64,000 nucleotides of DNA from Candidatus Uhrbacteria bacterium RIFCSPLOWO2_01_FULL_47_17. GTDB taxonomy: Bacteria > Patescibacteriota > Patescibacteriia > UBA9934 > GWF2-40-263. The translations under genes and the position numbers were made by a program. The stretch covers positions 340,208 to 404,207 of the forward strand of contig MGEI01000005.1 of the NCBI GenBank assembly GCA_001791305.1, read 5' to 3'. Every line of letters starts with the position of its first letter. The stretch's first letter is position 1. Of the stretch, positions 4,777 to 44,908 are shown piece by piece. The notes below the pieces were generated by a model. It had not been told where the DNA came from. It worked only from the letters and a program-made list of their open reading frames with translations, and made no database searches.

Positions 4777-5705
4777 GAGGCGGTCTCCTTTTTGCGTTCG
4801 TGACGCATGAGAGTTTGGATGTTGTTTTTCATCCGCGCCAAAAATCGATCCACGAAATCCGGCGGCGTCTCGTTTTCATGCCATGGGCATGAGACGCGTT
4901 GGATCTTTCGAAACGCGTATGAAATGAAGAGGCCGATGAGGCCAAGCGCCATCACATACGGAAAGGTCATGAATGCTCGTGGCGAACGATTGAGCTGCAT
5001 GAACCGGTGACCGATGCCATCGGAACCAACGATCCACTCCGTACCCATGAGAAACACGATGGCAGGAGAGATGGATTGGCGAACCGCTTCGATGATCTGC
5101 GGAATGATTTGTGGAAACACTACATACCACGTGACTTCCTGCTCAGACGCGCCGAGCGTTTTTGCCGTGAACACGTGTTCATCGGAAACGGATTTGGAAG
5201 CGAGGTAGACGTTTTTCGTGATCCCGACACAAATGCCAAACGCCATCACCCCCCAAAAGAGGGGATTCGACGTATGGAAAAGCGCGAGGAAGAAAATCAT
5301 CATGCCGTTTGCGGGAATGTGTTCCACAATCTCCATGATCGGCAAACACATTCTGCGCAGAAAATCGTAGAGACCCATATAGATCCCGACTGTGACGCAC
5401 AGCAGACTCGTTCCGCCGACGGCAATCAAGAGACGCGGTCCGGACACAAGAAAATCTTTCCAAAAAATGTAATCCCCTGATTGCGGATCAAGAAAGACGA
5501 GGAGTTTCAATCCCTCATAAAGACGATCGAACTTTGGCACGAGAGGAAATCTCGGCATGGGGGGAATGGTGTCTGTCTCGGCATAGGCGAGCGCTGTGTA
5601 GGCAAGAATCAGAAGCGCGATGCCGAGCACCGAGAAAAACATTCCAAGTTTTGGAGTCAAAGGCTTTCGTTGTGTAAAGATCAGCTTCAGTGTTTTTTGA
5701 AACAC
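4773..5705 (-). CDS. ABC transporter permease (TauC/SsuC-like, binding-protein-dependent inner membrane component)
   Basis: Multi-pass membrane protein with an EAA-like loop, overlapping the ATPase gene. The GTG start is preceded by GGAGGTGATAC. Confidence 0.8.
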   Translation of the reverse strand: MFQKTLKLIFTQRKPLTPKLGMFFSVLGIALLILAYTALAYAETDTIPPMPRFPLVPKFDRLYEGLKLLVFLDPQSGDYIFWKDFLVSGPRLLIAVGGTSLLCVTVGIYMGLYDFLRRMCLPIMEIVEHIPANGMMIFFLALFHTSNPLFWGVMAFGICVGITKNVYLASKSVSDEHVFTAKTLGASEQEVTWYVVFPQIIPQIIEAVRQSISPAIVFLMGTEWIVGSDGIGHRFMQLNRSPRAFMTFPYVMALGLIGLFISYAFRKIQRVSCPWHENETPPDFVDRFLARMKNNIQTLMRHERKKETAS

Positions 5706-5820: not shown

Positions 5821-7047
5821 TTACGGATTGGCACCCACGGTCGGGTTCGTGACGTAGCTCGCGTCGAAACGCAGGACGGCCGAAGGCGCTTCCGCCTTGG
5901 TGCCGAACGCCGTCACGACAGGACCGGAAATGGTCTTCGTAACCGACTTCGCGAACTCGGTCGTGAGCGGAATGGTCTTCTTGAAGTCCTCGGAGCCAAA
6001 CACGGCTTGCGCCTGGTCGGGCTTGATCGCGAGGGTCAGCGTCAGCGCGAGCTTGATCGTGTCGGCCGGCGTGTCCGAGAAGTTCTTCGACACAGCCGCG
6101 AGGGTCGCGGCCTGCGTCGTCGTGTTCTCCGCGCGGTTCACCATGGTGGTGTACGCTTCGGCGAGAGCCTTCACGGCTTCCTTGCCACCGGCGCGGTCGA
6201 GGGCGGACTGGCCGACCACGAACATGTCGGTGATTTCGTACTTGCCGAGCTTCGACGAGTTGAACAGGTCGTTGACATCCGGACGCGCCGCTGCAACCTT
6301 CAGGGTCTCCGGGCTCCAACCACCGAACGCGCGCATTTCGGGATTCGAATTCGCTGCGAACTGGTTGCTGCCGTCGACCGGATTCAGGTTCTGGAACGGG
6401 TAGTCCTTCACGTCGGTCTTGTTGATCGCGCAGCCACGCCAGTGCAGGTACCGCGTGACCGACATTTCGTCACCGAACACGGGCACACCCTTCAGCTGGG
6501 CCCAGTTCTTGATGTCGGGGTTGGTCTGGATCTTGTCCGCACCTTCCGAGACACTCGTCGCGAACGCGGCAACGGACGAATCCTTCACCGTGTCGAAACG
6601 CGCCTGAGCAACGGACAAGGCATCCGTATTCGTGATCACGACCGAGTCCACGATGCCACCCTGGTATTGCTCCATGGTCTTGCCGTAGTCCGCCTTGACG
6701 AGGACGATGTCCACGCCGTACTTGCGCTCAAGCTCACCGTGCTTGCCTTCGGCGGCATCGATGAGACCGACATCCTTTGCGGTGACGAGCAGCGACCACG
6801 TCGTGTACTCGCTCCACGCGAGGGTGAACTTCGGCAGATTCGCCGGAGCGGCTTCGGGCGCGGGGTTTGCGACCGCGGTCGGCGCGGGATTCGCGGCGGC
6901 GGCGGGCGGGGTCTCGGCCACGGGGGCCTTTTCGGCGACGACGGGTTCGTCCTTCACGGGCGTCTGCGGAGCCTCGCTCTTGCCGCACGCGGTGATCGCG
7001 AGGGCCGAGGCGAGGGCCATGATGTACTGAATGTTGCGCTTCAACAT
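5821..7047 (-). CDS. ABC transporter substrate-binding lipoprotein (NMT1/TauA/SsuA-like periplasmic binding fold)
   Basis: Signal peptide with lipobox (ALAITAC) at M58 of the listed ORF, RBS GGAG, an Ala/Pro-rich linker, then an SBP-like domain. It lies in a high-GC segment. Confidence 0.65.
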   Translation of the reverse strand: MLKRNIQYIMALASALAITACGKSEAPQTPVKDEPVVAEKAPVAETPPAAAANPAPTAVANPAPEAAPANLPKFTLAWSEYTTWSLLVTAKDVGLIDAAEGKHGELERKYGVDIVLVKADYGKTMEQYQGGIVDSVVITNTDALSVAQARFDTVKDSSVAAFATSVSEGADKIQTNPDIKNWAQLKGVPVFGDEMSVTRYLHWRGCAINKTDVKDYPFQNLNPVDGSNQFAANSNPEMRAFGGWSPETLKVAAARPDVNDLFNSSKLGKYEITDMFVVGQSALDRAGGKEAVKALAEAYTTMVNRAENTTTQAATLAAVSKNFSDTPADTIKLALTLTLAIKPDQAQAVFGSEDFKKTIPLTTEFAKSVTKTISGPVVTAFGTKAEAPSAVLRFDASYVTNPTVGANP

Positions 7048-7238
7048 GTTGAGGAACTCCTGTACCTCGATGTGCTCGAGGTGTCTGTGTGTTGAAAGAT
7101 CACGGCCCGATCTTTGTAGGCTCCGTGTGTCGGCTTGTCCGACGCACGGATGGGAACAGTTCTTTCCCACGAATGTCGATTCAATCGGCACTCGTGTAAA
7201 AGGGTGATTGAGAATCAATCACCAGAGGGTTCAAAGAA

Positions 7239-8081
7239 CTAGTTGAGCACACCGGTTTCGGTCGTAGCAACGGGCTTGTCGACCGTTGCCTTGGCTGCGT
7301 CTTCTGCACGCCTGGCACCGAAGAGCATACCTTCGAGCTCGTTGTCTGAGGTGTGACTTTCCGCGAGGGCGATGAGTTCTGCTTCACGCATGTCGGCATT
7401 GGTGCCGGCGATTTCCGCGACAACTTCCGACTTTGCGACGAGCTGATTGACCGCGCCTTCGATGTTGGCTTGGAGTTCGCCTGTCTTGTCGGACTGCAGA
7501 CCAGCGATGATCGACTGAGCGCGAATGGCGCTCTGGGCCGCTGCAGCCTTTGCCGCAAGCGTACCGCGCTTTTCAACCGTCTCCTTCAGATCGCGTTGCA
7601 TCCCTTCCAGGCTGAACATGAGCTTCTTCTTTTCTGCTTCTCCACGCGTGATTTCTGCCTGCAGTTCATTGCAACGCTTTTGCCGACTCTCCAGAATGCC
7701 GCCAGCATCGCTGTAGGCCTTCATCAGGCGAGTGTATTCGATGTCGGCGGTGATTTCCGCTTCGGTCTTGCCGGCGGCGAGTTGCTTTTGACCGTACTGC
7801 ATGTACTCGATTTTCGCACCAGCGCGAAGTTTCGTCGCACGCTCCAGTTTGACATCTGCCTCAGCCTTGCTCGTCTCGCTCGTGGTCAGATTGGCTTTGA
7901 CGGTGGAGATTGCGTTGATCATTTCATCGACGCCCTTTTGCTTCGACTTGATGACTTCATCCATACCGGCCCGAACAACGTTCGGATCCGTGTACATCTT
8001 GTTGGTCGCGTTTTGAATCGCGCCAGCCGCCTGGTAATCTTTGACGCCGAGCCAACGCATGAGAGCTGAAAACCACTTCAT
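7239..8081 (-). CDS. Coiled-coil protein, PspA/IM30-like (uncertain family assignment)
   Basis: N-terminal amphipathic helix MKWFSALMRWLG followed by about 250 aa of coiled-coil with PspA-like periodicity. The start was chosen at M14 because it has RBS GGAGAAAG. Confidence 0.4.
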   Translation of the reverse strand: MKWFSALMRWLGVKDYQAAGAIQNATNKMYTDPNVVRAGMDEVIKSKQKGVDEMINAISTVKANLTTSETSKAEADVKLERATKLRAGAKIEYMQYGQKQLAAGKTEAEITADIEYTRLMKAYSDAGGILESRQKRCNELQAEITRGEAEKKKLMFSLEGMQRDLKETVEKRGTLAAKAAAAQSAIRAQSIIAGLQSDKTGELQANIEGAVNQLVAKSEVVAEIAGTNADMREAELIALAESHTSDNELEGMLFGARRAEDAAKATVDKPVATTETGVLN

Positions 8082-15619: not shown

Positions 15620-16786
15620 ATGAAGTACAGCATCCTGTTCCTGGTGTCCTTGTTCCTTCTCGGTGCGTGCGGGACGTTCGAAGAATCGAATGCTCCGGCG
15701 CCTGCGACCGAAGAGGATTTGGAAATGGCCGAGTTTCTCGACTGCTCGGAAGTCGGTGACTGTGACGATTCGTTTCCGGACATCAACATCACGATCGAAC
15801 TCGATTGCGAGTCGGTCGATTCGAAGAAAAAAGGCGACATCTGCGTGTCGGTCTGCAACGAGTGCCAGAGCGGCTCCGACTGCATCGACACGGATGCCGA
15901 CTGGTATCCGGACACGTGCGTGACGCCCGTCGAAGCTCCGCCTGCGCGTGAACCGCCGCCGGTTTTGGTGGCTTGCGGTGGGACATTTTTTCCGCTCGGT
16001 GAACTGTGCAGTGGTGCATCCGGTGTGTGTCAGGAAAACGGCACACGCGAATGTTTCGAAGGCAAGCTCATCTGCTCGACGGATCCAAAGGGAAGCGCAT
16101 CGCTCGCGACCAATGAAGTCTGCGACGGTAAGGACAACGATTGCGACGGAGAGACGGATGAAGGTACGTCGCTCGTTTGGTACTTTCCGGACGTGGACGG
16201 TGATGGCTACGGCACAAGCGGCAATGCGCTTCTGAAGCCGGTCGAAGTCTGCACGAATGGATTGATTCCATCCGGCTACGTCTACAAAAGCGGTGACTGC
16301 GATGACAGCTACGATACAATCTACCCTGGCAAGAATTGTCCGTTTCCTGACAGTAACAGTGCATCCAAGTTGATCGTGATCCTCAAGTCATCGAAGAAGA
16401 CAAATATGGTTGGGTACGAAGATGACCCTACAACGTTCTACTTCAAGATTGCAAAGACTCTCGAGGAAGTCGCCGGCAAGTGGAGCAGTGATTATTTTCA
16501 GTTCGATACAGAAAGCGGATTCGCCGAGCTTGCTTTGAACGCGACGGATAAGTATGTCCGGTTCAACACGATCGACGCACCTGGGTGGTGGTCGACGTGC
16601 GGTGGGGCGTTCAACGCATTCAACGCAATTGATGGGGGATTCGCGCTCAATCCTAAGCTCAAGGTTTATCAGCTCAAGAACGGAGCATGGATCAACATGA
16701 CGAGCAAGGTGGAGATGTACGAGCAACCCAACGACGCAAGCAAGACCGACAGCGGTGACCTGTGCTCGGCTCTGCTCAAGCTTTAG
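15620..16786 (+). CDS. Cys-rich lipoprotein with MopE-like putative metal-binding repeats (DGxDNDCDGxxDE), paralogue 1
   Basis: Signal peptide plus lipobox LLGAC, repeated CDGKDNDCDGETDEG motifs, and a C-terminal domain homologous to that of the 16926 gene. Confidence 0.6.
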   Translation: MKYSILFLVSLFLLGACGTFEESNAPAPATEEDLEMAEFLDCSEVGDCDDSFPDINITIELDCESVDSKKKGDICVSVCNECQSGSDCIDTDADWYPDTCVTPVEAPPAREPPPVLVACGGTFFPLGELCSGASGVCQENGTRECFEGKLICSTDPKGSASLATNEVCDGKDNDCDGETDEGTSLVWYFPDVDGDGYGTSGNALLKPVEVCTNGLIPSGYVYKSGDCDDSYDTIYPGKNCPFPDSNSASKLIVILKSSKKTNMVGYEDDPTTFYFKIAKTLEEVAGKWSSDYFQFDTESGFAELALNATDKYVRFNTIDAPGWWSTCGGAFNAFNAIDGGFALNPKLKVYQLKNGAWINMTSKVEMYEQPNDASKTDSGDLCSALLKL

Positions 16787-16925: not shown

Positions 16926-18275
16926 GTGTTTTCCATGAAGTACGGAATTTCGTTTCTGGTGTCCTTGTTCCTGCTCGCGGCGTGCGAGACGACCAATGTG
17001 TACCCGACCGAGGTGGTCGAGGTACCGAAGGCGGAAACCGCGGTGAGTTGCAGTGCGGTCGATCCGACTCAGATCGAGATCAAACTCGACTGTGCGTCGG
17101 TCGGCGCGTTCCAGCACGGCGATTCTTGCATCAGCAACTGTACGCTCTGCAGCTCGCAAGAGATCTGCATCGATACGGACGGCGACAAGTGGAAGGACAC
17201 GTGCGTGCAAGGTGAGACGCCTCTTGAAACCCCGCCGGCTCACGAGCCGACGGCGACAACGGAAGCTCCGCCCGCTCGCGAACCGCCCGTCGAAGTTCAG
17301 TGCGGCGGTACGTTCGGCATGATCGGAACTCCGTGCAGTGGCGCGTTCGGCGCATGTGCGGAAAACGGCGTACTCGAGTGTGCTGACGGCGAATGGGAAT
17401 GTTCGACGGACGTGAAGGGAAGTGAATCTCTTGCGACTGTCGAACTGTGCGACGGCAAGGACAACGATTGCGACGGGGAGACGGATGAAGACTACACGTC
17501 TGACCTTGGCAAGCAGTGCTTCGGCCTGAATCAGTGCGGTCTTGGCCCGGGCGTCGTGGTTTGCAACAAGAAAGGAGAAATCGCGCAGTTGTCCTGCACG
17601 GTCGGAACCCCGTCGACGGCATATGCAACTCTGGATTCGCCGGAGCTCTGCGATGACATCGACAACAACTGCGACGGAAAGATCGACGAAGGCTGCGCGC
17701 TGAAAGTCGATCCATCCGAAGAAGACAATGACAAGGACAGTTACATGGCTCTGAATGACTGCGACGACAACGACGCGTTGATCCATCCCGGTCTCGACAA
17801 CTGCCCGACATTCCAAGGTCTGACCAAGGACAGTTACAAGCTGGTTCTGGTCTGGGGCGGAGCGGAAAACAGTCCGTACACCGCCAACGCGTATTTCAAG
17901 TTCGGAAAGAGTGCGGTCGAGTTGCAGTTCAGCTCGAAAGTGTTCTTCGACAACACGTGGGAAGTGAAAAGTTTCCCGCAATACAATTACACGGCGACGG
18001 ATCTGGAAAAGCAGTCGTCGCACGTCGCGTTCAACGTGTTCGGATATCCGGGTTACTGGTATCTGTGTTCGGGGAACGTCGTCGATACGATTTCATTCGC
18101 GCTCTCGAAGGAGCTTCCGAAGGTGTACCTCATCTCGGGCGGCGTCTGGAAGGAGGTGGGCAGCAAGCTTGAAGTGCTCGCAGCAAATGATCTCGAGGTC
18201 GTCAAAGGACCGATTTACGGCGGCGACTACAACAAGAGCAAGCCGGCCTACTGTGCAGCCATGCTGCAACTGTAA
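16926..18275 (+). CDS. Cys-rich lipoprotein with MopE-like metal-binding repeats, paralogue 2
   Basis: Signal peptide plus lipobox LLAAC, CDGKDNDCDGETDED and CDDIDNNCDGKIDEGC motifs, and a C-terminal domain paralogous to the 15620 gene. Confidence 0.6.
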   Translation: MFSMKYGISFLVSLFLLAACETTNVYPTEVVEVPKAETAVSCSAVDPTQIEIKLDCASVGAFQHGDSCISNCTLCSSQEICIDTDGDKWKDTCVQGETPLETPPAHEPTATTEAPPAREPPVEVQCGGTFGMIGTPCSGAFGACAENGVLECADGEWECSTDVKGSESLATVELCDGKDNDCDGETDEDYTSDLGKQCFGLNQCGLGPGVVVCNKKGEIAQLSCTVGTPSTAYATLDSPELCDDIDNNCDGKIDEGCALKVDPSEEDNDKDSYMALNDCDDNDALIHPGLDNCPTFQGLTKDSYKLVLVWGGAENSPYTANAYFKFGKSAVELQFSSKVFFDNTWEVKSFPQYNYTATDLEKQSSHVAFNVFGYPGYWYLCSGNVVDTISFALSKELPKVYLISGGVWKEVGSKLEVLAANDLEVVKGPIYGGDYNKSKPAYCAAMLQL

Positions 18276-35045: not shown

Positions 35046-35153
35046 CTATTGACAAAATCACAAAAAGCCGATACGCTCGCGGAAGTTCTTTTTCGCGGGT
35101 GTTTTGTTTTCGATGGTCGAAAATGAATTACGCGCATTGTGTGTGAGGCGAAC

Positions 35154-36260
35154 ATGTCTTCTTCATATCCGAGACTCATGAGCGTTGATGGTCTGTCGAT
35201 TGGTGTCAATCTTCCGTACAGGCAGATGCATGGCGGACGGGGACTTGCCGCGTTTGCACCGCACATGGTTCACAACGTGGCAGACTTCAAGGAGTCGCCG
35301 CAAGGGTGGCCGCGCGCAGTCGGAGAAAAAGAAGCTTCGTACTTTACGGGCGTGATGGATGACCGCGAGATGTGGTTTGACTTCAAAGCCATGAATCAGC
35401 ATCCGCATTTCGTTGCGATCGCCGTGATTGTGCAGCGCGTGAATGCGGTGAGCGGTCGCAAGGCGGAGCATGTCTACCTTGAACAGTACAAGACCACGTG
35501 TCCGAATCACGACATCGCGTTTGAGTCGGAACGCTACTGCCCGGAATGCAAATTCAAGTGGCCGGCTCAGAACTACGTGACGAATGTGGTTGGAGGTGGT
35601 GAGTTCTGGCTCGACGGTTGGCGCAGCCAGGATGGCGAGATTCGTCAGTTCGTGTTTGCGGATGTCGAGGCTGGTCTCGGTGTCGCACAGCAACTGATCG
35701 GCGAGGAACGCACGGCAGACATTCGATTCGCAGTCTTCCTTTCGAAGAACCCGAAGCCGGTTTCGCCGCGTATGGATGTGTTGCGTCGAGGGATCGGGAG
35801 TCCGATCGTCACCGCACATCAGCAGCACTATGGCACTCTTGGCGGACACGATCTCGAATCGTTTGGTTCACAAACGAAGGGTGGTTTCGAAGTTCACACC
35901 ATGCTTTACAACAGTCCCGCTGTTGCCATGGGAACGCGTTCCATGGATCCCGCATCGGTGACCCTTGGTGGTGGTGAGGAGAGGGGGATCCCGTTTTGCG
36001 ACGATCTCGCAGAATCGGTCGGTACCATGCGTCGCATTGGCGCTCCGGTGAAGCAAGAGGTTTCGTTCGGTCGCGCGGTGGATCAGAAGATTCACGCGGA
36101 TCCGAACGACATCGACTTCTGGCAGTCGGAACCTGCCGCGGTCATCATGCTCACGCCCGCACCTGCGGATTGGGTGGCAACGGTCACGCGCAACGGCGCT
36201 ACCGTTGATCGCACGAAAGGCGGCATGGGTCCGCTTGCGGGAATCAAAGGCGTTGGCTAA
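35154..36260 (+). CDS. Hypothetical protein with a CxxH...CxxC motif (about 368 aa), island gene 1
   Basis: SD gagg before the MSSSYPRL start; TTCPNHD...YCPECKF. High GC. Confidence 0.5.
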   Translation: MSSSYPRLMSVDGLSIGVNLPYRQMHGGRGLAAFAPHMVHNVADFKESPQGWPRAVGEKEASYFTGVMDDREMWFDFKAMNQHPHFVAIAVIVQRVNAVSGRKAEHVYLEQYKTTCPNHDIAFESERYCPECKFKWPAQNYVTNVVGGGEFWLDGWRSQDGEIRQFVFADVEAGLGVAQQLIGEERTADIRFAVFLSKNPKPVSPRMDVLRRGIGSPIVTAHQQHYGTLGGHDLESFGSQTKGGFEVHTMLYNSPAVAMGTRSMDPASVTLGGGEERGIPFCDDLAESVGTMRRIGAPVKQEVSFGRAVDQKIHADPNDIDFWQSEPAAVIMLTPAPADWVATVTRNGATVDRTKGGMGPLAGIKGVG

Positions 36261-36345: not shown

Positions 36346-36513
36346 GTGTTGCCTGGAAAATAGACAAGAAACCCTTGACGAATTCCAAATACGCGGCTAG
36401 TCTGCTGTATTGGTGAGCGGCTTTTAGGAGATTCACTCGAGTCTCTTGAAAGCCGTTCGTCAACAAACGCTGTGTTTGCCTCGTCGTTCGGTGTTTCAGC
36501 TAGGAGAAGTTCC

Positions 36514-37773
36514 ATGGCAAAGCCCAAGGCGCCCGTCGCCCCCGAAGTCGCTGTTTCCGGCGAAATCCCCGCTCCCGCAAGTGCGAAGTGGACCGACAAG
36601 GTCAAGGCGTTCGCCGAGACCTGCGAACTCGAAGCAGCGGATGTCGAAGCGAAGTTCGTCGGTCTCGTCGGAAAAGCGTCCGACAAGGCCGCGGATCGTC
36701 TCGGTAACGAGAAGTTGTCGCCCTACGAAGATCTGAGCGCGCTGTTCCCCGATGTCCCGAAGGCTGTGCTGCGTGAAGCAGTGAACGGTCTGCGTGACAT
36801 CCAGGTGACGGCGGCTCCGGTTGCAACCCATGAGGGTGCCAGTGATGGTGCGGAAGAAGCTCCGTTCGTTTCTCTGCTCCCCACGGTTCCTGACGATACC
36901 AATCTGCTCGCCTCCCTCGGAACGTTCCAGGGTGCGCAGATCGATCCGATCGACGTGATTGCGGCCATGCGCGTGAAGCTCATGCAGCAGTTGTCTCTTT
37001 CGGACATCGAGTCGCGTATCGCCGACGCCATCGAAGAGCGTGCGGTCAACGCGGGCGAACAGTGCCCGCCGATCTGGGATGAAATCGAGATGCAACGCAA
37101 GCGGTTTGCGCATGCGGAAGTCCTGAAGGCGCTCGGCAAGCCGGGCGATCTCATCTCGGCAGCTCGCAAGAAAGAATTGCTCGCTCGCGTGAGCGACATC
37201 TTCGAACGTGTGCATGACTACAAGCTCGTGCTCGACGCCTACCGTGAAGAGTACGATCGTCGTACCAACAATCCTGCGCACATGATGACAGCGATCACGC
37301 AAGCGCTCGGTCGTGCGAGCTCGGGTCGTGGTCGGCGTTTGAGCGAAGCTCCGAGCCCCAACAACGTGGTGGCGGCAACGGAAGCACTCATCCAGTCTTT
37401 CAACGCGATGTTTGCTGGTAATGGCCGCGCGGTTGCGCGTGGCATGGCTGCAGACGCGATCGCGACGAAGGCCATCCTCGATCGTACGGATTTGCCCGCC
37501 GCGCTCGGTGCGGCGAGTCGAGTTCAGATGATCAAGGATCTCAAGCTCGGTGTCGAATCGGATCTCATCAATGCCGAGAAGGACATCCAGCAGTTCATTT
37601 TGGGCGCGATGCAGCTCCTGCAGGTTCCGACGAACCAGTTGCCGGACTACATCGTTGACCTGAGCGAACTCGGCTGCGTCATCCCGTGGCCTCGCCTCGG
37701 TGTTCGCGGTACGGTTCCCGGCAACGGCGCCGCTCGTCCGCTTCCCGGCGCTGGCAATCGCTCTTTCGGCTAG
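36514..37773 (+). CDS. Hypothetical acidic Ala-rich protein (about 419 aa), island gene 2
   Basis: SD gctaggag before MAKPKAP. Confidence 0.5.
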   Translation: MAKPKAPVAPEVAVSGEIPAPASAKWTDKVKAFAETCELEAADVEAKFVGLVGKASDKAADRLGNEKLSPYEDLSALFPDVPKAVLREAVNGLRDIQVTAAPVATHEGASDGAEEAPFVSLLPTVPDDTNLLASLGTFQGAQIDPIDVIAAMRVKLMQQLSLSDIESRIADAIEERAVNAGEQCPPIWDEIEMQRKRFAHAEVLKALGKPGDLISAARKKELLARVSDIFERVHDYKLVLDAYREEYDRRTNNPAHMMTAITQALGRASSGRGRRLSEAPSPNNVVAATEALIQSFNAMFAGNGRAVARGMAADAIATKAILDRTDLPAALGAASRVQMIKDLKLGVESDLINAEKDIQQFILGAMQLLQVPTNQLPDYIVDLSELGCVIPWPRLGVRGTVPGNGAARPLPGAGNRSFG

Positions 37774-37824
37774 TCCGAACTTTCCGTCTCAGAACGTCCC
37801 AAAAAGACGTTCTTTTTTATTACT

Positions 37825-37951: not shown

Positions 37952-39571
37952 ATGCAAACGTTGCCGGATATTCGTACGCTTCCACTTCCGTCCAAGTTCA
38001 CCACGGCGCTTCTCAAACTCGCGATTCGCACGCTTGAAATGGCCGAATCGAACGAGACGGGGAATCTCCTCGTCGCTGCTCGACTCTGCACTGCGACGGT
38101 TGGATCACGTACAACCTTTGGTCAGCTCTCGATTCCGTCCATCTCGGACTGGAACAATGCGATCATGATTGAAGGGATTGCGGCTCCTAGTGTTCGCATT
38201 CACGAACTTGTGGATCTTTTGAAGATGATCGATCCGACAACGCCTGTGTGCGATGCATGCGGCGAATTCGCGATCAATCAGATCGGCGGAAAGTTCATGT
38301 CGCTCGCACCGAGCGAAGTCTGTCCGTTCTGTCTCACGGGACATGTGCACATCGTGCCGATGATTCTGCGCACCGTGAACTGGGTAACCGGTGAACTGGT
38401 CGCGCCGAACATTGAGTACGATTCGCGCTCGCATGTCGGTGTCGGCATTCCACTGACCGACGAAGCGATCATGGATTGGGCGAAAGAGATTCATCCATCA
38501 CTCACGAAATCTCTTGAGAAGTACGGCGTGTCGATTCACGGATTTCTTGCATATGCTTTTTTGTATGCGCATGCATTTTCTTCGATCGAAGAAGCACCCG
38601 AGTTCCTCGCGCACGCGCCGTTTCATAGCACAGTGAATGCAACAGACCTTGCTGTAAAAGCAGCTTGGTTCATGGATGATCGCGAGATCACGAATCTTCC
38701 GCACAAGAAGTTTCTCTCCGACGGTCGTCGTCGCGATGAGTTTCAACCTGTCGTGATTGGCGGTCGATTGTATTTGATTGATCGACACATCGGCACGGGT
38801 GATAAGAGCGATGTGTTTCTTGCACGCACCGATGATGAAACGCCCGAGCGTCTCGTGCTCAAGCGTTTGCGTGAAACGGCCGACGGCGATTTGCACGATC
38901 ATGAAATTGACGTGCTGAATCGATTGGCGAAAAGTGTTGTGCGCGGTTCCGTGCACTTCAGTCAGTTCGTTCCGCAAATCGCGTTTTCGCAGAACAGCAA
39001 AACGGAAAAGCCGGTGATCGCCTTTCGTGAACGTGGAACATTCCATTTCACGGTTGCGGACGTTATGCGTGAATATCCAGAAGGAGCGGATTTCAAAACC
39101 GCGGTCTGGATTTGGAAGCGCATGCTCATGATTCTTGATTGGGTGCACGCGAACCGTTTGGTTCACGGCGCAATCCTTCCGGATCATATCTTGCTCGACG
39201 TGCCGAATCACAACGCACGACTCTTGGATTGGGGATACGCCGAATTGTTTGGTGGATCTCTTAAAGCCTTCAGTGAATCAAATCGTGCATTCTATCCCGC
39301 AGAAGTTTTGGGTGGTTCGCCACTTGATCCACGTCTGGACATTGCGATGATGACACGATGTGTCATCGCCCTTCTTGGCGGAGATCCCGTCCGGAAAATC
39401 CTTCCTTCTTCTGTGCCGGATGCGTTCCGTGTGTGGATGTTGGAAGAAGCAGGATACGACTCGTTGCGGACGGTCTGCGACAATGCGTATGCACTGCACG
39501 AGCGTGTGAGTGCGACGGCCAAACAAGTGTATGGTCCGCCGTCATTTCACGCGCTTTCCATGCCGCGCTAA
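37952..39571 (+). CDS. Protein-kinase-like fold protein with an N-terminal zinc ribbon (about 539 aa), atypical catalytic loop, island gene 3
   Basis: Zinc ribbon CDACGEF...CPFC. Kinase-like elements are LVLKRL (beta3 Lys), HEIDVLNRL (alphaC Glu), VHGAILPDHILLD in place of HRDLKPENILL, and LLDWGYAE in place of DFG. SD gaaggag. Confidence 0.55.
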   Translation: MQTLPDIRTLPLPSKFTTALLKLAIRTLEMAESNETGNLLVAARLCTATVGSRTTFGQLSIPSISDWNNAIMIEGIAAPSVRIHELVDLLKMIDPTTPVCDACGEFAINQIGGKFMSLAPSEVCPFCLTGHVHIVPMILRTVNWVTGELVAPNIEYDSRSHVGVGIPLTDEAIMDWAKEIHPSLTKSLEKYGVSIHGFLAYAFLYAHAFSSIEEAPEFLAHAPFHSTVNATDLAVKAAWFMDDREITNLPHKKFLSDGRRRDEFQPVVIGGRLYLIDRHIGTGDKSDVFLARTDDETPERLVLKRLRETADGDLHDHEIDVLNRLAKSVVRGSVHFSQFVPQIAFSQNSKTEKPVIAFRERGTFHFTVADVMREYPEGADFKTAVWIWKRMLMILDWVHANRLVHGAILPDHILLDVPNHNARLLDWGYAELFGGSLKAFSESNRAFYPAEVLGGSPLDPRLDIAMMTRCVIALLGGDPVRKILPSSVPDAFRVWMLEEAGYDSLRTVCDNAYALHERVSATAKQVYGPPSFHALSMPR

Positions 39572-39594: not shown

Positions 39595-40557
39595 ATGGGG
39601 TACGGTCGTAGTGATCACGACGCGCATGTGGCGCGTTCGGCAGTTCGGGCATCTCTTCCGCGTGAAGAGGTGTTCAAGCAACGTGTCCTCAATCCGGAAA
39701 TGGATCCGCGCGGACTCACGGTTCGCGAAAGTCGCGACAGTGCGGAACATCCGAACTCGCTCGGCGTCATGTTCTGGATCGATGAGACGGGTTCCATGTG
39801 CGAAATTCCGGAAAACCTCGCGAAGCACACACTCCCGCATTTCGTTGGCGACCTCATGAAGGTCGAGCCGGATGCGCAAGTGTTCTTCGGAGCGATCGGC
39901 GACGCAACGACGGGTGAAGCGTCTCCGCTTCAAGTGGGCCAGTTCGAAAGTTCGGACGAACTCATGGACAAGTGGCTGACCGCGGTTCACCTCGTCCGTG
40001 GCGGTGGTGGCAACGCGGGTGAGAGTTACGATCTCGCCATGTACGTCGCCGCGCGCCATACGGCCATGGACTGCTTCGAGAAGCGTGGTCGCAAGGGCTA
40101 CTTCTTCTTGTGCGGTGACGAACCGCATCTCGGCAGCGTGAAGAAGCGCGAGATCAAGCAGTTGATCGGCACGGACATCCCGAAGGATATCCCGATTGTG
40201 GAGATTGTTCGGGAACTGAAGCGCACGTTCCATCCGTTCTTCTTGATTCCGGATCCGGATCGGGCGCACCGTGTGGAGCGCATCTGGCGCGAGTTGTTTG
40301 GCGACAACGTCATCACGCTCGCGGTGCCGGAAGATACTGGTGTCGTCTCCGCGATTCTCATCGGTCTCACCGAAGGGCATCTTGCGGACATGCAGTCGGT
40401 GAAGGCCAAGCTTGAAAGCGACTTCGGCCGCAAAGGTCAGGAACGCGATCGCGTCTTGCGCGCAGTCGAAGCCTATGCGGTTTCGATCGGTCGTGCGGGA
40501 CAAGGCGAACGTCCGTCGAGCACAAACTCGCGTCCGTACGGCAACTCGCGTCCGTAA
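39595..40557 (+). CDS. Cytoplasmic vWA-domain protein (TerY-like), island gene 4
   Basis: MIDAS motif WIDETGSM, RGGGGNAGESYDLA and FLCGDEPH. SD aggag. Confidence 0.6.
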   Translation: MGYGRSDHDAHVARSAVRASLPREEVFKQRVLNPEMDPRGLTVRESRDSAEHPNSLGVMFWIDETGSMCEIPENLAKHTLPHFVGDLMKVEPDAQVFFGAIGDATTGEASPLQVGQFESSDELMDKWLTAVHLVRGGGGNAGESYDLAMYVAARHTAMDCFEKRGRKGYFFLCGDEPHLGSVKKREIKQLIGTDIPKDIPIVEIVRELKRTFHPFFLIPDPDRAHRVERIWRELFGDNVITLAVPEDTGVVSAILIGLTEGHLADMQSVKAKLESDFGRKGQERDRVLRAVEAYAVSIGRAGQGERPSSTNSRPYGNSRP

Positions 40558-40649
40558 GTTCTTTCCATCTTGAGGTTCAACGCGAACCTCTTTTTTTACA
40601 AGCAATGATCAACAGGATGATTGCTGGTAGAAAAACAAACGGAGGTTTC

Positions 40650-42035
40650 ATGAATCAACATGCTCACATTGTCATCGACCTTGGATTCGGTGATTGTGGA
40701 AAAGGCACGATCGTTGATGCACTCGTGCGTAAACACAAAGCCCATTCCGTGTTTCGTTTCAATGGTGGTGCGCAAGCCGCACACAATGTTGTGACGTCGG
40801 ACGGAAGGCATCACACATTTCAACAGTTTGGTTCTGGAACATTTGTTCCGGGCGTACGAACGATTCTTTCTGAATTCATGCTCGTACAGCCATGGATCTT
40901 GTCTTCAGAAGAAGCACTGCTTCAGCAAGTTGGTGTGACTGATGCGTTTGATCGACTGTTCATTCATGAGCGCGCACTCATTACGACTCCTTTTCATCGT
41001 GCGGCAAACCAAATGCGCGAACGCGCTCGAGGGGACGGTCGCCACGGGAGTTGTGGAATAGGCGTTGGTGAAACAGCGAAGGATGCGACGGAGTGCGGAG
41101 AAGAGTTGATTCTTCGTATGGGCGACCTTTGCGATCGCGAAACGTTTGTGACGAAAATGCATCGTGTACGCAAGTACAAGCATAATCAAATGCGTTTGTT
41201 CATTGCGGCGCAACGTCGTGATCCAGATGCGGAAGCAAATATTCTTGCATTCGAGGATCCGGATGAAGTGATGTACTGGGTTGATCAACTCTACACATCG
41301 ATCGAACGATTTCATATTGTTGACGACGCGTTTGTTGCATCGATCTTGGAAGAAGATGGTCACGTTGTTTTCGAAGGCGCACAAGGCGTGCTCATCGACG
41401 AATGGCGCGGATTCCATCCGTACACCACATGGTCCACATGCACATTCAAAAACGCGCTCGAACTGCTCGAGCGCGCAAATTATGCAGGTGAAGTTCATCG
41501 GATCGGGGTTGTACGTGCGTACGCAACGCGGCATGGCGCGGGACCGTTTCCAACGGAAGATGCAGGACTCACGGAACGCATTCCAGACACGCACAACCAA
41601 ATGGAAACATGGCAACGCGAATTTCGCGTTGGCCACTTCGATTGTGTCTCCACGCGTTACGCGATCAATGCCTGTGGCGGCATCGACTCGCTTGCGATCA
41701 CGTGTCTCGATCGCTTGCGCGATGAACATGTATGGAATGTCTGCACGCATTACGAGCTCGCGGCGGAAGATCAAGATTCCGCGTTGTTCGACCAAGACGA
41801 TGTTTCGGAACATCTCGTGACGGACATAAGACTCGGAACCTTTCAAGATCTCGCACATCAAGAGCGACTCACGAACGCACTTCTTCGCGCAAAGCCTGTG
41901 TTGCGCATTACGGCATCATCCGGCACGTTCAGCGAAAGTGTCGAAGATCACGTCCATCGAATCTCGCGCGAACTCGACGTTCCGGTCTCGATCCTCTCAT
42001 TTGGTCCCACGGCCGAAGACAAGAAATTTCTCTGA
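40650..42035 (+). CDS. Adenylosuccinate synthetase family paralogue (PurA/PurZ-like) with substituted catalytic motifs, island gene 5
   Basis: Shows collinear similarity to PurA (VIDLGFGDCGKGTIVD, FEGAQGVLIDEWRGFHPYTTWS, VRAYATRHGAGPFPTE, LAITCLDRL). GDEGKGK becomes GDCGKGT, GGHNAGHT becomes GGAQAAHN, GTTGRGIGP becomes GSCGIGVGE, and TTGRRRR becomes TWQREFR. Confidence 0.65.
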   Translation: MNQHAHIVIDLGFGDCGKGTIVDALVRKHKAHSVFRFNGGAQAAHNVVTSDGRHHTFQQFGSGTFVPGVRTILSEFMLVQPWILSSEEALLQQVGVTDAFDRLFIHERALITTPFHRAANQMRERARGDGRHGSCGIGVGETAKDATECGEELILRMGDLCDRETFVTKMHRVRKYKHNQMRLFIAAQRRDPDAEANILAFEDPDEVMYWVDQLYTSIERFHIVDDAFVASILEEDGHVVFEGAQGVLIDEWRGFHPYTTWSTCTFKNALELLERANYAGEVHRIGVVRAYATRHGAGPFPTEDAGLTERIPDTHNQMETWQREFRVGHFDCVSTRYAINACGGIDSLAITCLDRLRDEHVWNVCTHYELAAEDQDSALFDQDDVSEHLVTDIRLGTFQDLAHQERLTNALLRAKPVLRITASSGTFSESVEDHVHRISRELDVPVSILSFGPTAEDKKFL

Positions 42036-42159
42036 TGCGATTCACTTCGCATCTTTTTTGTTTCCTAACCTTGACATAAGCGAGTTCATTTGATAGGCTT
42101 TCGCTCGTTGTGTACAGATGGTCTGCACGCAATTTGTTCCTCAAACACAAAGGAAAGCC

Positions 42160-43080
42160 ATGTCGAAGAAGATCGGTGCAGAACTCGCGGCGGCCATTTT
42201 GGCCATGTTCAAGGATCCCTCCAAGCTCGCGGTTGAGCTCAAGGTTCACATCTTTCCGTGTCCGCACGGCGATGAAAAATCCCATTCGCATTTCAAGGTG
42301 ACGTCCCCGTTCGTTGGGGAAAACGCGCCCAGTCCGAAGCTCGAAAGTGATCTGATGATCCAAGCGTCCATGCAGCCTTTCACGCCCGTCAACGGCAATT
42401 ACATCTTCCGTCAGAGTCTGCTCGAGGGCACCAAGTGCACGAATGCGGAAGGGGCGGATGAGGCAACGGTCGAGTTCTTGCTCCAAAACGGCGTGACCAA
42501 GGCCCTGTTCGATCTGAGTTGTTTCCTGAACGAAGCGCTCGCCGAGTGGCCGACCGAAGTTGTGACTGAGCACGCGCTCGCACGTGCGTATTCGGAAAAC
42601 CTGCGCCGCAAGGTCTGGCATGGCAGTGATACGAATCCGATCGATGTCGAGGTGATCGGTGCGGTGGAAGATGCCCATCAGGCAACTCTCATCAAGCTCA
42701 ACTCCGTACTCTCCGGCCTGTTCGGTCGCCCTCCGCGGCCGCCACAGAATGACAAGATCGTTCTCGTTGCGTTCAGTGACAACAATCCGTGTGCACCCGT
42801 GGTCCGCAAGGTCTATGCTGCGTACGCAACCGAGATCCTGAACACGAAGATCGAACCCGAGATCGCTCCCAAGATCGTGGAGCGCGTGCAGCTCGCTCTC
42901 GACACGCTCGCAACGCGCCTCGCAAAGCAGCAGGCTCCGAAGACGGAAGCAATCACCAACGCTCCGACAGCAACGTCCGGCGCGGTCGAGGGTGACTCGA
43001 CCAAGAACAACAGTTCGTCGATCGGCGAAACCTCGGAAGACACCGAAGGCCACAGTTCCTCGATCGGCGCCACGGCGTAG
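42160..43080 (+). CDS. Hypothetical protein with a low-complexity Ser-rich C-terminus (about 306 aa), island gene 6
   Basis: SD aaaggaaag before the MSKKIGAE start. An upstream TTGACA...TAGGCT promoter-like site lies at about 42061-42095. Confidence 0.5.
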   Translation: MSKKIGAELAAAILAMFKDPSKLAVELKVHIFPCPHGDEKSHSHFKVTSPFVGENAPSPKLESDLMIQASMQPFTPVNGNYIFRQSLLEGTKCTNAEGADEATVEFLLQNGVTKALFDLSCFLNEALAEWPTEVVTEHALARAYSENLRRKVWHGSDTNPIDVEVIGAVEDAHQATLIKLNSVLSGLFGRPPRPPQNDKIVLVAFSDNNPCAPVVRKVYAAYATEILNTKIEPEIAPKIVERVQLALDTLATRLAKQQAPKTEAITNAPTATSGAVEGDSTKNNSSSIGETSEDTEGHSSSIGATA

Positions 43081-43254
43081 GTCGATCCAGTCTCACACTC
43101 TCCCTCGCGAGAGTGTTTTTTTATTTTGTTCGACAAAATAATCCCTCGAAGCCTTCTGCTTACTGGAGGATATTATCGAAGATGACGGCGAAGTGGGATG
43201 TGTTATGTAAAGATTTCGTCGTATACAAAATAAAAAGAGGATCAAGATTGATCC

Positions 43255-44833: not shown

Positions 44834-44908
44834 GGCCCCATCGTCTAATGGTTAGGACATCAGGTTTTCATCCTGGTAACAGGGGTTCAATTCCCCTTGG
44901 GGTCACCA
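44834..44908 (+). tRNA. tRNA-Glu (anticodon UUC), CCA encoded
   Basis: Cloverleaf: acceptor GGCCCCA/TGGGGTC, D arm GTCT-AATGGTTA-GGAC, anticodon stem-loop TCAGG-TTTTCAT-CCTGG, T arm AGGGG-TTCAATT-CCCCT, and 3' ACCA. Confidence 0.85.

Follow-up and report, generated by a model that had tools for sequence, protein, structure and literature searches.

A window of 64,000 nucleotides of a contig from Candidatus Uhrbacteria bacterium RIFCSPLOWO2_01_FULL_47_17 was analyzed. It contains, on the forward strand, the genes for a pseudokinase-like protein, a protein with a von Willebrand factor A (vWA) domain, and a protein similar to adenylosuccinate synthetase (PurA) (Table 1). The gene for the PurA-like protein is preceded by a GGAGG ribosome-binding site located 6 nt 5' of its ATG. 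The protein matches the Pfam family PF00709 (Adenylsucc_synt) with an E-value of 3.5e-71 and 240.6 bits (cutoff, 27), from residue 7 to residue 456 and over profile positions 1-413 of 416, and matches E. coli PurA structures at E 2e-33; with these E-values, chance similarity is excluded. The end-to-end similarity to PurA noted in the first-pass annotation is thus borne out, and by these matches, the gene is a real, intact member of the adenylosuccinate synthetase family.

Table 1. Genes, motifs, and terminator-like sites of the three-gene locus (positions in the window)
Feature	Position (nt)	Strand	Length or residues	Remarks
Pseudokinase-like gene	37952..39571	+	539 aa	Pfam Pkinase E 1.1e-7; AF2 model
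Zinc ribbon CxxC...CPFC	38249-38332	+		Pseudokinase, lineage-specific N-terminal domain
Eukaryote-like protein kinase fold	about 38735-39571	+		Pseudokinase, C-terminal
HGA (HGAILPDH), from HRD	39164-39187	+		Pseudokinase
DWG, from DFG	39227-39235	+		Pseudokinase
vWA-domain partner gene	39595..40557	+	320 aa	AF2 model; Foldseek
N-terminal tail MGYGxxD..AH	39595-39627	+		vWA protein
RESRDSxxHP	39724-39753	+		vWA protein
MIDAS motif DETGS	39781-39795	+		vWA protein
Terminator-like hairpin and T-run	40572..40590	+		Between vWA and PurA-like genes; consensus scan
PurA-like gene	40650..42035	+	461 aa	Pfam, NCBIfam, alignment
P-loop GDCGKGT	40689-40709	+	residues 14-20	In translation; aligns to PurA GDEGKGK
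GGAQAAHN	40764-40787	+	residues 39-46	In translation; aligns to PurA GGHNAGHT
GSCGIGVGE	41046-41072	+	residues 133-141	In translation; aligns to PurA GTTGRGIGP
FEGAQGVLID	41370-41399	+	residues 241-250	In translation
TRHGAGPFPTE	41526-41558	+		Contains GAGPFPTE, residues 296-303
TWQREFR	41607-41627	+	residues 320-326	In translation; aligns to PurA TTGRRRR
TCLD	41700-41711	+		PurA-like gene
SFGPT	41997-42011	+		PurA-like gene
Terminator-like hairpin and T-run	42034..42053	+		Directly 3' of PurA-like stop; probable module end

The first-pass annotation had quoted a series of motif strings from this protein and described four of them as altered forms of motifs that are characteristic of PurA. All the strings are present in the translation at the positions given there, and when the alignment to PurA was checked, the altered ones fell opposite the corresponding PurA motifs as claimed. 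These correspondences come from a pairwise alignment to E. coli PurA and from a 268-sequence MAFFT alignment, in which conservation was counted over 267 relatives. In all, there are 2891 clusters of related sequences at 50% identity (E<=1e-30); relatives are encoded in at least 561 GTDB species genomes, and the clade includes proteins of Myxococcus, Actinomadura, Embleya, and Oscillochloris as well as those of M. smegmatis phages.

Residue roles in the clade were carried over by alignment from E. coli PurA, the numbering of which is used here. From mutational and crystallographic work on that enzyme, we take Asp13 to be the catalytic base, His41 the acid, Gln224 a residue that binds the base, and Asp333 the one that binds guanine; Asn38, Thr129, Thr239, and Arg143 of the partner subunit presumably contact the 5'-phosphate of IMP, and Thr300, Thr301, Arg303, Arg305, and Arg131 contact aspartate or hadacidin. 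The clade retains a core of G12, D13, G15, K16, G17, H41, Q224, T239, D333, S414, G416, and P417. Among the 267 sequences, D13 is kept in 265, K16 in 266, H41 in 266, Q224 in 265, T239 in 260, and D333 in 266; the window protein has Asp13, Lys16, His41, and Gln224, each found in 265-266 of the clade members. The remaining elements of guanine specificity are kept in 255 (S414), 267 (G416), and 226 (P417) sequences, and K331 of the (N/T)KxD motif gives way to Cys, His, or Asn; the retention of D333 and of SxGP fits the use of GTP. With canonical PurA (EC 6.3.4.4; E. coli structures 1ADE, 1GIM, and 1CG0), the clade shares the fold over the full length, the Gly, Asp, and Lys of the P-loop, the catalytic His41, Gln224, Thr239, and the guanine-specific Asp333, and the first half-reaction, that is, GTP-dependent phosphorylation of O6 of a 6-oxopurine, is probably identical.

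In contrast to canonical PurA, the part of the active site that accommodates aspartate is rebuilt. T301 is replaced by Trp in 259 of the 267 sequences, G302 by Gln in 263, and R305 by Phe in 244; position 131 is occupied by M, V, L, or I, all hydrophobic, instead of Arg, and neither R303 (Gly in 133 and Arg in 75 of 267) nor the variable R304 is conserved. In the window protein, the positions of Thr300, Thr301, Arg303, Arg304, Arg305, and Arg131 are occupied by T, W, R, E, F, and I, respectively. Some carboxylate binding may persist because R303 is present in the window protein and in those 75 members, and R306 is invariant. Of the contacts to the 5'-phosphate of IMP, the clade keeps Thr239 only: N38 is changed to Gln in 265 sequences and T129 to Cys in 253, and no Arg is conserved at position 143; at the dimer interface, D231 is Trp in 181 of 267. 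The clade has also gained three invariant residues, H126, E135 (P135E in 256), and H273 (V273H in 266). As judged from this alignment, the clade keeps the core for GTP binding and phosphoryl transfer together with the residues for activation of a purine at its 6-oxo group, and the aspartate pocket is replaced. Because the rewired motifs are conserved across these relatives in a manner specific to the clade, they point to a repurposed ligase, one of the options named in the first-pass annotation, rather than to a decayed gene.

The PurA-like gene is the last one of a conserved pseudokinase-vWA-PurA-like module that is present in bacteria of about ten phyla. Of the loci in species genomes, 59 have 2.6 kb or more of sequence on each side; 56 of these contain the vWA gene, 54 contain both the vWA and the kinase-like genes, and in 50, the order is kinase-vWA-PurA-like on one strand. 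The vWA gene is present in all 66 IMG/VR loci with flanks of the same length and both partners in 52 of these, although many of these 'viral' contigs are 100-437 kb long with a high GC content, so that perhaps not all of them are viruses. The genes that flank the module differ from locus to locus, and clustering of 1087 flanking ORFs across 165 loci revealed no conserved extra neighbor except for the regulator NrtR, the gene for which adjoins 25 of 82 bacterial loci (upstream) and 4 of 80 IMG/VR loci. Neither the conserved partners nor the occurrence of the module in phages figured in the first-pass annotation.

The vWA protein has no Pfam match above the cutoff; its family members match DUF444, VWA, VWA_2, and VWA_CoxE weakly (best E 0.009), and a family profile compared with the sequences of solved structures yielded nothing below E 0.28. 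The assignment comes from the AF2 model (pLDDT 88.3, pTM 0.88), for which the best Foldseek matches, at probability 1.0 and with E-values no stronger than 2.5e-7, are vWA domains, including vWF-A1 and those of the integrin beta I-like type, and NCBI labels the homologs 'VWA domain-containing protein'. In addition to the motifs in Table 1, the protein contains a GGGGN loop and a GDE motif. The N-terminus is exactly MG, followed by [YGF]-G-x-Y-[DS]-x-[ED]-A-H, in 113 of 120 homologs, and the phage versions start with MGSGAW or MGGATW. The low pLDDT of this N-terminal tail in the model suggests that it is flexible.

The start assigned to the pseudokinase-like gene agrees with the database protein P0388 (100% identity), and the AF2 model of the protein is most similar to CK1 and Aurora kinases. 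Of 123 distinct homologs, 114 retain the beta3 Lys and 121 the alphaC Glu; the H, G, and A of the HGA motif are found in 121, 111, and 109, respectively, the catalytic Asp in one, and His in place of Asn in 111; the Asp of DFG is kept in 87 and lost in 36. We considered a SelO-like kinase (HGAxxPDH versus HGVxNTDN in SelO) and dropped this idea, since the homologs do not conserve residue 7 of the motif.

The surroundings of the module in the window consist of Patescibacteria housekeeping genes, namely, those for riboflavin synthase, TsaD/TsaE, GpsA, FtsH, a type II secretion ATPase, ClpP, SMC, and GyrA. Rubrerythrin and TrmB are further neighbors named by annotation or Pfam. The first-pass annotation had placed the gene in a putative conflict island; this setting was rejected once approximately 30 ORFs of the window, along with the parent contig, had been annotated with Pfam. 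Membership in a defence system was rejected as well: PADLOC found no match for the PurA-like or the vWA protein, and for the kinase-like protein, only generic kinase matches (PD-T4-6, MkoA, PglW, and mad6; best E 5e-7). With regard to regulation, there are 15 terminator-like sites in the region versus 10.8 +/- 3.5 in shuffled sequences, a slight excess that is weak evidence; because one such hairpin lies between the vWA and PurA-like genes, co-transcription of the two is uncertain here. At the Rfam gathering thresholds, only tRNAs, and no riboswitch or RNA leader, were detected, both in the window and across nine loci that represent several phyla.

The module is also found in cultured lytic phages, where it belongs to the core gene set of approximately 200 Mycobacterium cluster C phages (Bixzunavirus). 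In Mycobacterium phage Sebata, gp260 is a kinase with the HGA motif (LVHGAITPDN), gp261 is a vWA protein starting with MGSGAW, and gp263 is a PurA-like protein that is 38.9% identical to the window protein over 100% of the query and contains all the clade motifs. PHROGs 1211, 2971, and 3043 match the three module proteins, with phrog_1211 matching the PurA-like protein (E 2e-80) and phrog_3043 and phrog_2971 matching the two window partners; Rhizobium and Vibrio phages encode the vWA and PurA-like pair. The protein of cluster C1 (Bixzunavirus) phages annotated as 'PurA-like adenylosuccinate synthetase' (Bxz1 gp250, Sebata gp263; phrog_1211) belongs to the same clade as the window protein and shares the motifs GDAGKGT, GGSQAGHN, GGSCGKGIGE, WQGKFR, and THLD. 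The phage operon resembles the window operon in containing a kinase with HGA and a vWA protein starting with MG, and differs from it in that an additional gene of 88 aa separates the vWA gene from that of the enzyme; where the window kinase has the zinc-ribbon domain, the N-terminus of the phage kinase is short and bears a weak J-domain-like HPD motif. A literature search found annotation-level mentions of the Bixzunavirus gene (PMC2771037, PMC9476963), with no functional study of this gene, of the clade, or of the three-gene triad.

To our knowledge, all characterized members of the adenylosuccinate synthetase family, namely, PurA, PurZ, and the antibiotic-pathway paralogs, use L-aspartate. 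The PurA paralogs of nucleoside-antibiotic pathways, such as those for toyocamycin, tubercidin, and formycin, have a purine-like nucleotide different from IMP as their substrate but, as far as is known, still use aspartate and a PurB-type lyase and are encoded within biosynthetic gene clusters; in both these respects, they appear to be unlike the present clade. The clade appears to keep the purine-activating chemistry and to have lost the aspartate pocket, which implies a purine reaction or product as yet undescribed, and such a reaction is probably what the enzyme catalyzes. The explanation that we favor, and that we give a slightly better than even chance of being correct as a whole, is that of a GTP-dependent 6-oxopurine ligase from a non-PurA, non-PurZ subfamily whose nucleophile is not aspartate and which acts together with the two partners. 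GTP would serve to phosphorylate a hypoxanthine-type nucleotide at O6, and the 5' group of this nucleotide may be bulkier than, or different from, that of IMP. The nucleophile would then displace the phosphate from the C6-activated nucleotide. Candidate nucleophiles are ammonia, resulting in direct amination of the IMP-to-AMP type, or a neutral or cationic amine; CTP synthase provides an analogy, with O-phosphorylation followed by an attack of NH3. The vWA protein and the pseudokinase may bind the enzyme as regulators or bring the acceptor.

An ordinary but divergent purA, with a role in purine salvage as the source of adenylosuccinate in a reduced Patescibacteria genome, would account for the complete fold, the retained catalytic residues D13, H41, and Q224, the R303 of the window sequence, and the label 'adenylosuccinate synthase' that automated pipelines attach to the homologs. 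Nevertheless, this reading is highly unlikely given that all the purA equivalog models of NCBIfam score the protein at less than half of their cutoffs (NF002223, 190.9 versus 402; TIGR00184, 173.3 versus 395.55; NF010355, 129.8 versus 445; NF010357, 111.9 versus 700; NF003295, 89 versus 368), in agreement with the first-pass view of a paralog rather than a true purA. Furthermore, the replacements of T301, R304, R305, and R131 and the changes at N38, T129, and R143 are clade-wide, the linkage is obligately with vWA and pseudokinase genes and not with purine genes, and the clade extends to Myxococcus, Actinomadura, Embleya, Oscillochloris, and M. smegmatis phages; in the bacteria among these and in M. 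smegmatis, a normal purA is presumably not absent. The first-pass annotation had also compared the protein with PurZ of Z-genome phages (PurZ/PurZ0, EC 6.3.4.25), which is reported to condense aspartate with dGMP. The likeness is loose and consists in membership in the PurA family, changed specificity, and occurrence in phages, the homologs of which are named '2-aminooxy adenylosuccinate synthetase' in RefSeq and PHROG. That this is a PurZ-type enzyme making Z (2-aminoadenine) nucleotides from dGMP is extremely unlikely and, in our reading of the sequence tests, already contradicted: the protein scores 51.2 bits against the PurZ model NF038379 with its cutoff of 300, and the clade keeps Asp13 and has lost the aspartate-binding residues of PurA, whereas PurZ is reported to use aspartate and has Ser at the Asp13 position in 100% of the phage enzymes (PMC12884076; bioRxiv 2025.10.22.683976), where, with F12 and T262, it makes room for the 2-amino group (bioRxiv 2025.10.22.683976). 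The gene neighborhoods differ, too. The clade resides mainly on bacterial chromosomes, its conserved neighbors are the vWA and pseudokinase genes, and DatZ, MazZ, and DpoZ are not among the annotated or Pfam-named neighbors, with several nearby window ORFs having no family match. By these scores and residues, the PurA-like proteins form a large, uncharacterized subfamily that is neither PurA nor PurZ.

Two further readings assign a role to the partners. The PurA-like protein might be a regulatory nucleotide switch that binds GTP and an inosine-type nucleotide and hydrolyzes GTP with water, without ligation, contributing the NTPase or sensor part to a TerY-P-like signaling or defence cassette with the vWA protein and the pseudokinase. 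W301 and F305 would fill the Asp pocket, a nucleotide-sensing GTPase with a water nucleophile would also be in keeping with the conserved catalytic residues, P-loop NTPases are common partners of vWA proteins, MoxR systems being an example, and the variable flanking genes are those expected of a mobile cassette. The partners are of a signaling type; TerY-P triads are built around a vWA-kinase pair, and some of these triads work as stand-alone antiphage systems (PMC11090510). The TerY-P triad (TerY-like vWA, PP2C, and Ser/Thr kinase-zinc ribbon) shares with the module a MIDAS-containing vWA, a kinase of eukaryote-like fold, in many cases with a fused zinc ribbon, and the form of a mobile three-gene cassette with variable flanks. 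However, the module has the PurA-like enzyme in the third place and no PP2C, which is neither encoded in the window operon nor recurrent across the 165 loci; the window kinase lacks the catalytic Asp and has its zinc ribbon at the N-terminus, and PADLOC assigns no TerY-P family to it and nothing to the vWA or PurA-like proteins. Moreover, D13, H41, and Q224, conserved in >99% of the 267 sequences, serve purine O6 chemistry and not plain GTP hydrolysis, and a place in the core gene set of the lytic Bixzunavirus phages is unusual for a defence system, so that we consider the switch unlikely. A decidedly unlikely reading makes the vWA protein itself the acceptor: after removal of Met, the free alpha-amine of its N-terminal Gly would be the nucleophile, forming an N6 link to purine C6, and the pocket of the pseudokinase would read the adduct. 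In a specific version, which is very unlikely, C6 of GTP-activated IMP would be joined to this amine, and the resulting N6-linked protein-AMP conjugate would be bound by the nucleotide pocket of the dead kinase, as a post-translational switch of bacteria and large phages. The vWA N-terminus that is invariant from residue 1, including the phage forms, its possible flexibility in the model, and the pairing of the vWA and PurA-like genes, the tightest one in the module, are consistent with such a ligase. So are the Lys-Glu nucleotide-binding pair retained by the pseudokinase and the loss of the carboxylate-binding Arg with the gain of W301, F305, W231, and W240, which would suit a peptide without a side-chain carboxylate and with Tyr residues nearby. 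The argument is circumstantial, however, and the tail could just as well dock into the pseudokinase; APC-corrected mutual information between the vWA tail and the PurA-like active-site positions over 146 pairs mainly reflected the divergence of the bacterial from the phage lineages, with no active-site signal. We know of no precedent for purine-C6 ligation chemistry on a protein.

In bacterial genomes, these genes carry the label 'adenylosuccinate synthase', and RefSeq phage records and PHROGs use the name '2-aminooxy adenylosuccinate synthetase'; this systematic mis-annotation can mislead metabolic reconstructions of Patescibacteria and surveys of phage Z-genomes. The near-obligate pairing with the vWA protein and the pseudokinase defines a three-gene module that is unreported in the literature searched and that spans ultra-small Patescibacteria, developmentally complex bacteria, and approximately 200 mycobacteriophages. 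Because the mycobacteriophage carriers can be grown and genetically modified, the function of the module is directly open to experiment. Conceivable outcomes include direct amination of inosine nucleotides or a new N6-substituted adenylate; were the vWA protein itself the acceptor, the module would represent a new kind of post-translational switch common to bacteria and large phages.

The protein encoded by the PurA-like gene is related to adenylosuccinate synthetase across nearly the entire Pfam Adenylsucc_synt profile (positions 1-413 of 416, E = 3.5e-71) and matches the structures of E. coli PurA with E = 2e-33. The start codon at 40650 is favored over the in-frame ATG at 40605 because a GGAGG ribosome-binding site lies 6 bases 5' of the former. 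The first-pass annotation described this gene as a PurA paralogue with rewired nucleotide-binding motifs, and the observation holds: all the motif strings quoted are found in the translation, and in a residue-by-residue alignment, they lie opposite GDEGKGK, GGHNAGHT, GTTGRGIGP and TTGRRRR of PurA. The interpretation is borne out in part: the protein departs from PurA as proposed, but neither the suggested resemblance to PurZ of Z-genome phages nor the placement in a conflict island is supported.

As a PurA, the protein is rejected by all five NCBIfam purA equivalog models, each scoring below half of its cutoff (at best, 190.9 bits against 402). The NCBIfam PurZ model yields 51.2 bits against a cutoff of 300. 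What defines PurZ is a Ser in place of the catalytic Asp13, present in 100% of phage PurZ (PMC12884076); the window protein retains the Asp. The enzyme belongs to the PF00709 superfamily and to the phage 'PurA-like' clade; by the defining features tested, it is neither a PurA nor a PurZ. The bacterial homologues are automatically named 'adenylosuccinate synthase'; the genes of Bixzunavirus and Rhizobium phages carry the product name '2-aminooxy adenylosuccinate synthetase' in RefSeq (for example, NC_041993.1 gp263 and NC_070966.1 gp019) and in phrog_1211. The latter name appears to be an over-extended PurZ-type label because gp263 of phage Sebata and the Vibrio phage gene both retain Asp13.

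Relatives of this protein form 2891 clusters (50% identity, E<=1e-30) and are present in at least 561 GTDB species genomes, the best 80 of which include Patescibacteria (Uhrbacteria, Saccharibacteria, Paceibacterota), Myxococcota, Chloroflexota, Actinomycetota, Gammaproteobacteria, Planctomycetota and Acidobacteriota. Conservation was counted across 267 sequences aligned with E. coli PurA, in E. coli numbering, with residue roles taken from the mutational and crystallographic literature on the E. coli enzyme. The phosphotransfer and base-activation core is kept (G12 in 266, D13 in 265, K16 in 266, H41 in 266, Q224 in 265, T239 in 260 and D333 in 266 of the 267). The aspartate pocket is swapped for a different conserved set, with T301W in 259, G302Q in 263 and R305F in 244 sequences; position 303 is occupied by Gly in 133 and Arg in 75, and R131 is replaced by Met, Val, Leu or Ile. 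The contacts with the IMP 5'-phosphate and the dimer are altered as well (N38Q in 265, T129C in 253, D231W in 181), and there is no conserved Arg at position 143, where the Arg of PurA crosses the homodimer to bind the substrate phosphate. Three new residues are nearly invariant: H126 (258), E135 (256) and H273 (266). Judging by this alignment, the altered motifs have not decayed but form a conserved signature; the catalytic core is untouched and the new residue set is under purifying selection, which indicates that the enzyme is active and that its second substrate has changed. The nucleotide substrate probably differs at its 5' end, too.

The PurA-like gene is tightly linked to two others, encoding a kinase-like and a vWA protein. 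Among the loci with at least 2.6 kb on both sides of the PurA-like gene, vWA is present in 56 of 59 from species genomes and in all 66 from IMG/VR; both partners are found in 54 and 52, respectively, and the order kinase-vWA-PurA-like on one strand in 50 and 45. The IMG/VR contigs carrying the triad are mostly 100-437 kb long, with GC of 0.28-0.71; some may be jumbo phages and others misclassified cellular contigs. When 1087 flanking ORFs were clustered, the sole other recurrent neighbor was an NrtR-family regulator (NUDIX and NrtR winged helix), which immediately precedes the triad at 25 of the 82 bacterial loci and at 4 of the 80 from IMG/VR and is co-directional in Actinomycetota and divergent in Saccharibacteria. 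An actinomycete example retains the REx2EE Nudix box, and the association hints at control of the triad by ADP-ribose or a related nucleotide.

The kinase-like protein (Pfam Pkinase), which shares 100% identity with one from Candidatus Uhrbacteria RIFCSPHIGHO2_02_FULL_47_44, combines a lineage-specific N-terminal zinc-ribbon domain with a C-terminal eukaryote-like kinase fold (best Foldseek matches CK1 and Aurora). Across 123 distinct sequences, the beta3 Lys (114) and alphaC Glu (121) are kept, H-R-D reads H-G-A (121, 111 and 109, respectively), with the catalytic Asp in a single sequence, His takes the place of the metal-binding Asn in 111, and 36 no longer have the DFG Asp. This residue pattern marks the protein as either a conserved pseudokinase or an atypical enzyme, for which nucleotide binding is probably still possible. 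The vWA protein has no Pfam match; its AF2 model is a vWA domain (pLDDT 88) with the MIDAS motif DETGS. Its N-terminus is invariant from residue 1 (MG-[YGF]-G-x-Y-[DS]-x-[ED]-A-H in 113 of 120 homologues), is common to the phage versions and sits on a low-confidence, presumably flexible tail. DUF444 (YeaH/YhbH family) is weakly matched by 6 of the 32 vWA homologues in one alignment (A2; best E = 0.009). In PrkA-YeaH-YcgB/SpoVR operons, another atypical kinase has the YeaH/YhbH family as its vWA-like partner, and the triad may be distantly akin to these modules. Among described operons, the TerY-P triad comes closest, combining vWA and PP2C with a Ser/Thr kinase that is fused to a zinc ribbon (PMC11090510); unlike it, the window triad has the PurA-like enzyme in place of the phosphatase, and its kinase lacks the catalytic Asp.

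The PurA-like gene is present in 240 phage records (tblastn, INPHARED), of which 202 are Mycobacterium phages, with the best matches in Bixzunavirus (cluster C1); PHROGs 1211, 2971 and 3043 match the three proteins of the window triad. In Sebata, the genes run gp260 ('Ser/Thr kinase', LVHGAITPDN), gp261 (vWA, MGSGAW...), gp262 (88 aa) and gp263, the last being 38.9% identical to the window protein over its full length and carrying the clade motifs GGSCGKGIGE, WQGKFR and THLD. The Sebata pseudokinase contains an HPD motif in its N-terminal stretch …SLASAVHPDRVP… and may be a J-domain fusion; its DnaJ-domain match (E = 0.025) is below the cutoff. The vWA and PurA-like pair also occurs in Rhizobium phages (RHph_TM30 and relatives) and Vibrio phages (phiKT1024, Va1 and others), where nucleotide and NAD-related genes lie nearby: those for a phosphoribosyltransferase-like protein and a cytidyltransferase in one of the two groups, and those for NADAR, NrdDG and a TROVE protein in the second. 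Shorter PurA-like variants of phiKT1024 and RHph_TM30 adjoin the vWA gene, with no kinase-like gene detected at either locus. The phiKT1024 variant has intermediate motifs, with Asn38 and Thr129 kept (GGANAGHT, HGSTG) and the RRRR aspartate motif already lost. These traits suggest that loss of the aspartate site and pairing with vWA are the oldest.

The wider window is an ordinary Patescibacteria chromosome, with genes for SMC, DHH phosphoesterase, ClpP, VanW, TrmB, riboflavin synthase, rubrerythrin, GpsA, TsaD/TsaE, a type II secretion ATPase, FtsH and GyrA, and PADLOC found no match for the PurA-like and vWA proteins, so the notion of a conflict island finds no footing here. The two genes directly 5' of the triad have no Pfam, NCBIfam or PADLOC match, and by tblastn they are confined to a small number of close relatives within Uhrbacteria (2 and 6 of 86 loci). 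The hairpins are weak evidence because the region is just slightly enriched for terminator-like sites. Gene calls clash 3' of the PurA-like gene (41929-43080): the ENA call took the minus strand, a related Uhrbacteria contig has a 296-aa plus-strand gene there, and neither ORF has a Pfam match. MopE-like putative metal-binding motifs (Pfam PF11617) occur in two proteins whose genes are neighbors of each other. GC is 0.52-0.57 at 34-44 kb, including the triad, 0.43-0.47 at 24-34 kb and 0.41-0.49 at 44-64 kb; this unevenness is not clear evidence of recent transfer because 6-20 kb also reaches 0.53-0.60.

Features of the window and, where an L number is given, of the compared loci
Feature	Coordinates	Strand	Remark
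MopE-like motif protein	15620-16786	+	E 9e-4
MopE-like motif protein	16926-18275	+	E 3.7e-9
Gene 5' of triad	35139-36260	+	373 aa
Gene 5' of triad	36472-37773	+	433 aa
Terminator-like hairpin	37791-37813		before kinase-like gene
Kinase-like gene	37952-39571	+	539 aa
vWA gene	39595-40557	+	320 aa
Terminator-like hairpin	40572-40590		between vWA and PurA-like genes
PurA-like gene	40650-42035	+	461 aa
Terminator-like hairpin	42034-42053		directly after PurA-like stop
ORF	41929-43053	-	374 aa
ORF	42118-43080	+	320 aa
Terminator-like hairpin	43095-43116	+	after ORF 42118-43080
tRNA	44834-44905	+	
NrtR, L038, L054, L062, L068-L070, L072, L079, L080 and others	about 4000-4950		
NrtR, L014, L081	3824-4530	-	
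Pseudokinase, Sebata (L167)	2607-3680		
PurA-like variant, phiKT1024 (L168)	6140-7276		378 aa
PurA-like variant, RHph_TM30 (L169)	5998-7248		416 aa

The fold of the enzyme is intact. With D333 and SxGP kept, the enzyme would still use GTP, and with D13, H41 and Q224 kept, it would phosphorylate the O6 of a hypoxanthine-type nucleotide; the activated carbon would then pass to a nucleophile other than aspartate. The preferred candidate is ammonia, giving a one-step amination of the IMP-to-AMP type, because Trp and Phe fill the former aspartate pocket and the chemistry would be analogous to that of CTP synthase. A neutral or cationic small amine ranks next, for which E135 and the aromatics W231, W240, W301 and F305 would be suitable, followed by the N-terminal glycine of the vWA partner. 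The loss of Arg143 and the D231W change together suggest a changed quaternary arrangement, and the active site may be completed by a partner protein. Around the former ribose-phosphate site, H126, C129, E135 and H273 could form a putative metal site.

For Bxz1-type phages, a 'PurA-like' gene is mentioned at the annotation level (PMC2771037; PMC9476963), and a recent phylogeny covering 767 members of the PurA family, 481 from viruses, describes groups of 251 PurA and 151 PurZ sequences (PMC12884076); our literature searches found no functional study of the clade or the triad. As a lead only, three observations favor a role in the handling of purine or NAD-related nucleotides over one in classical defense: the module forms a core gene set in lytic phages, occurs in host-dependent Patescibacteria, and recurs near NrtR, NADAR and NAD-salvage-type genes. 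The PurA-like family is large, and its chemistry is probably new for the PurA fold; the whole module is carried by mycobacteriophages that are amenable to growth and genetic modification.
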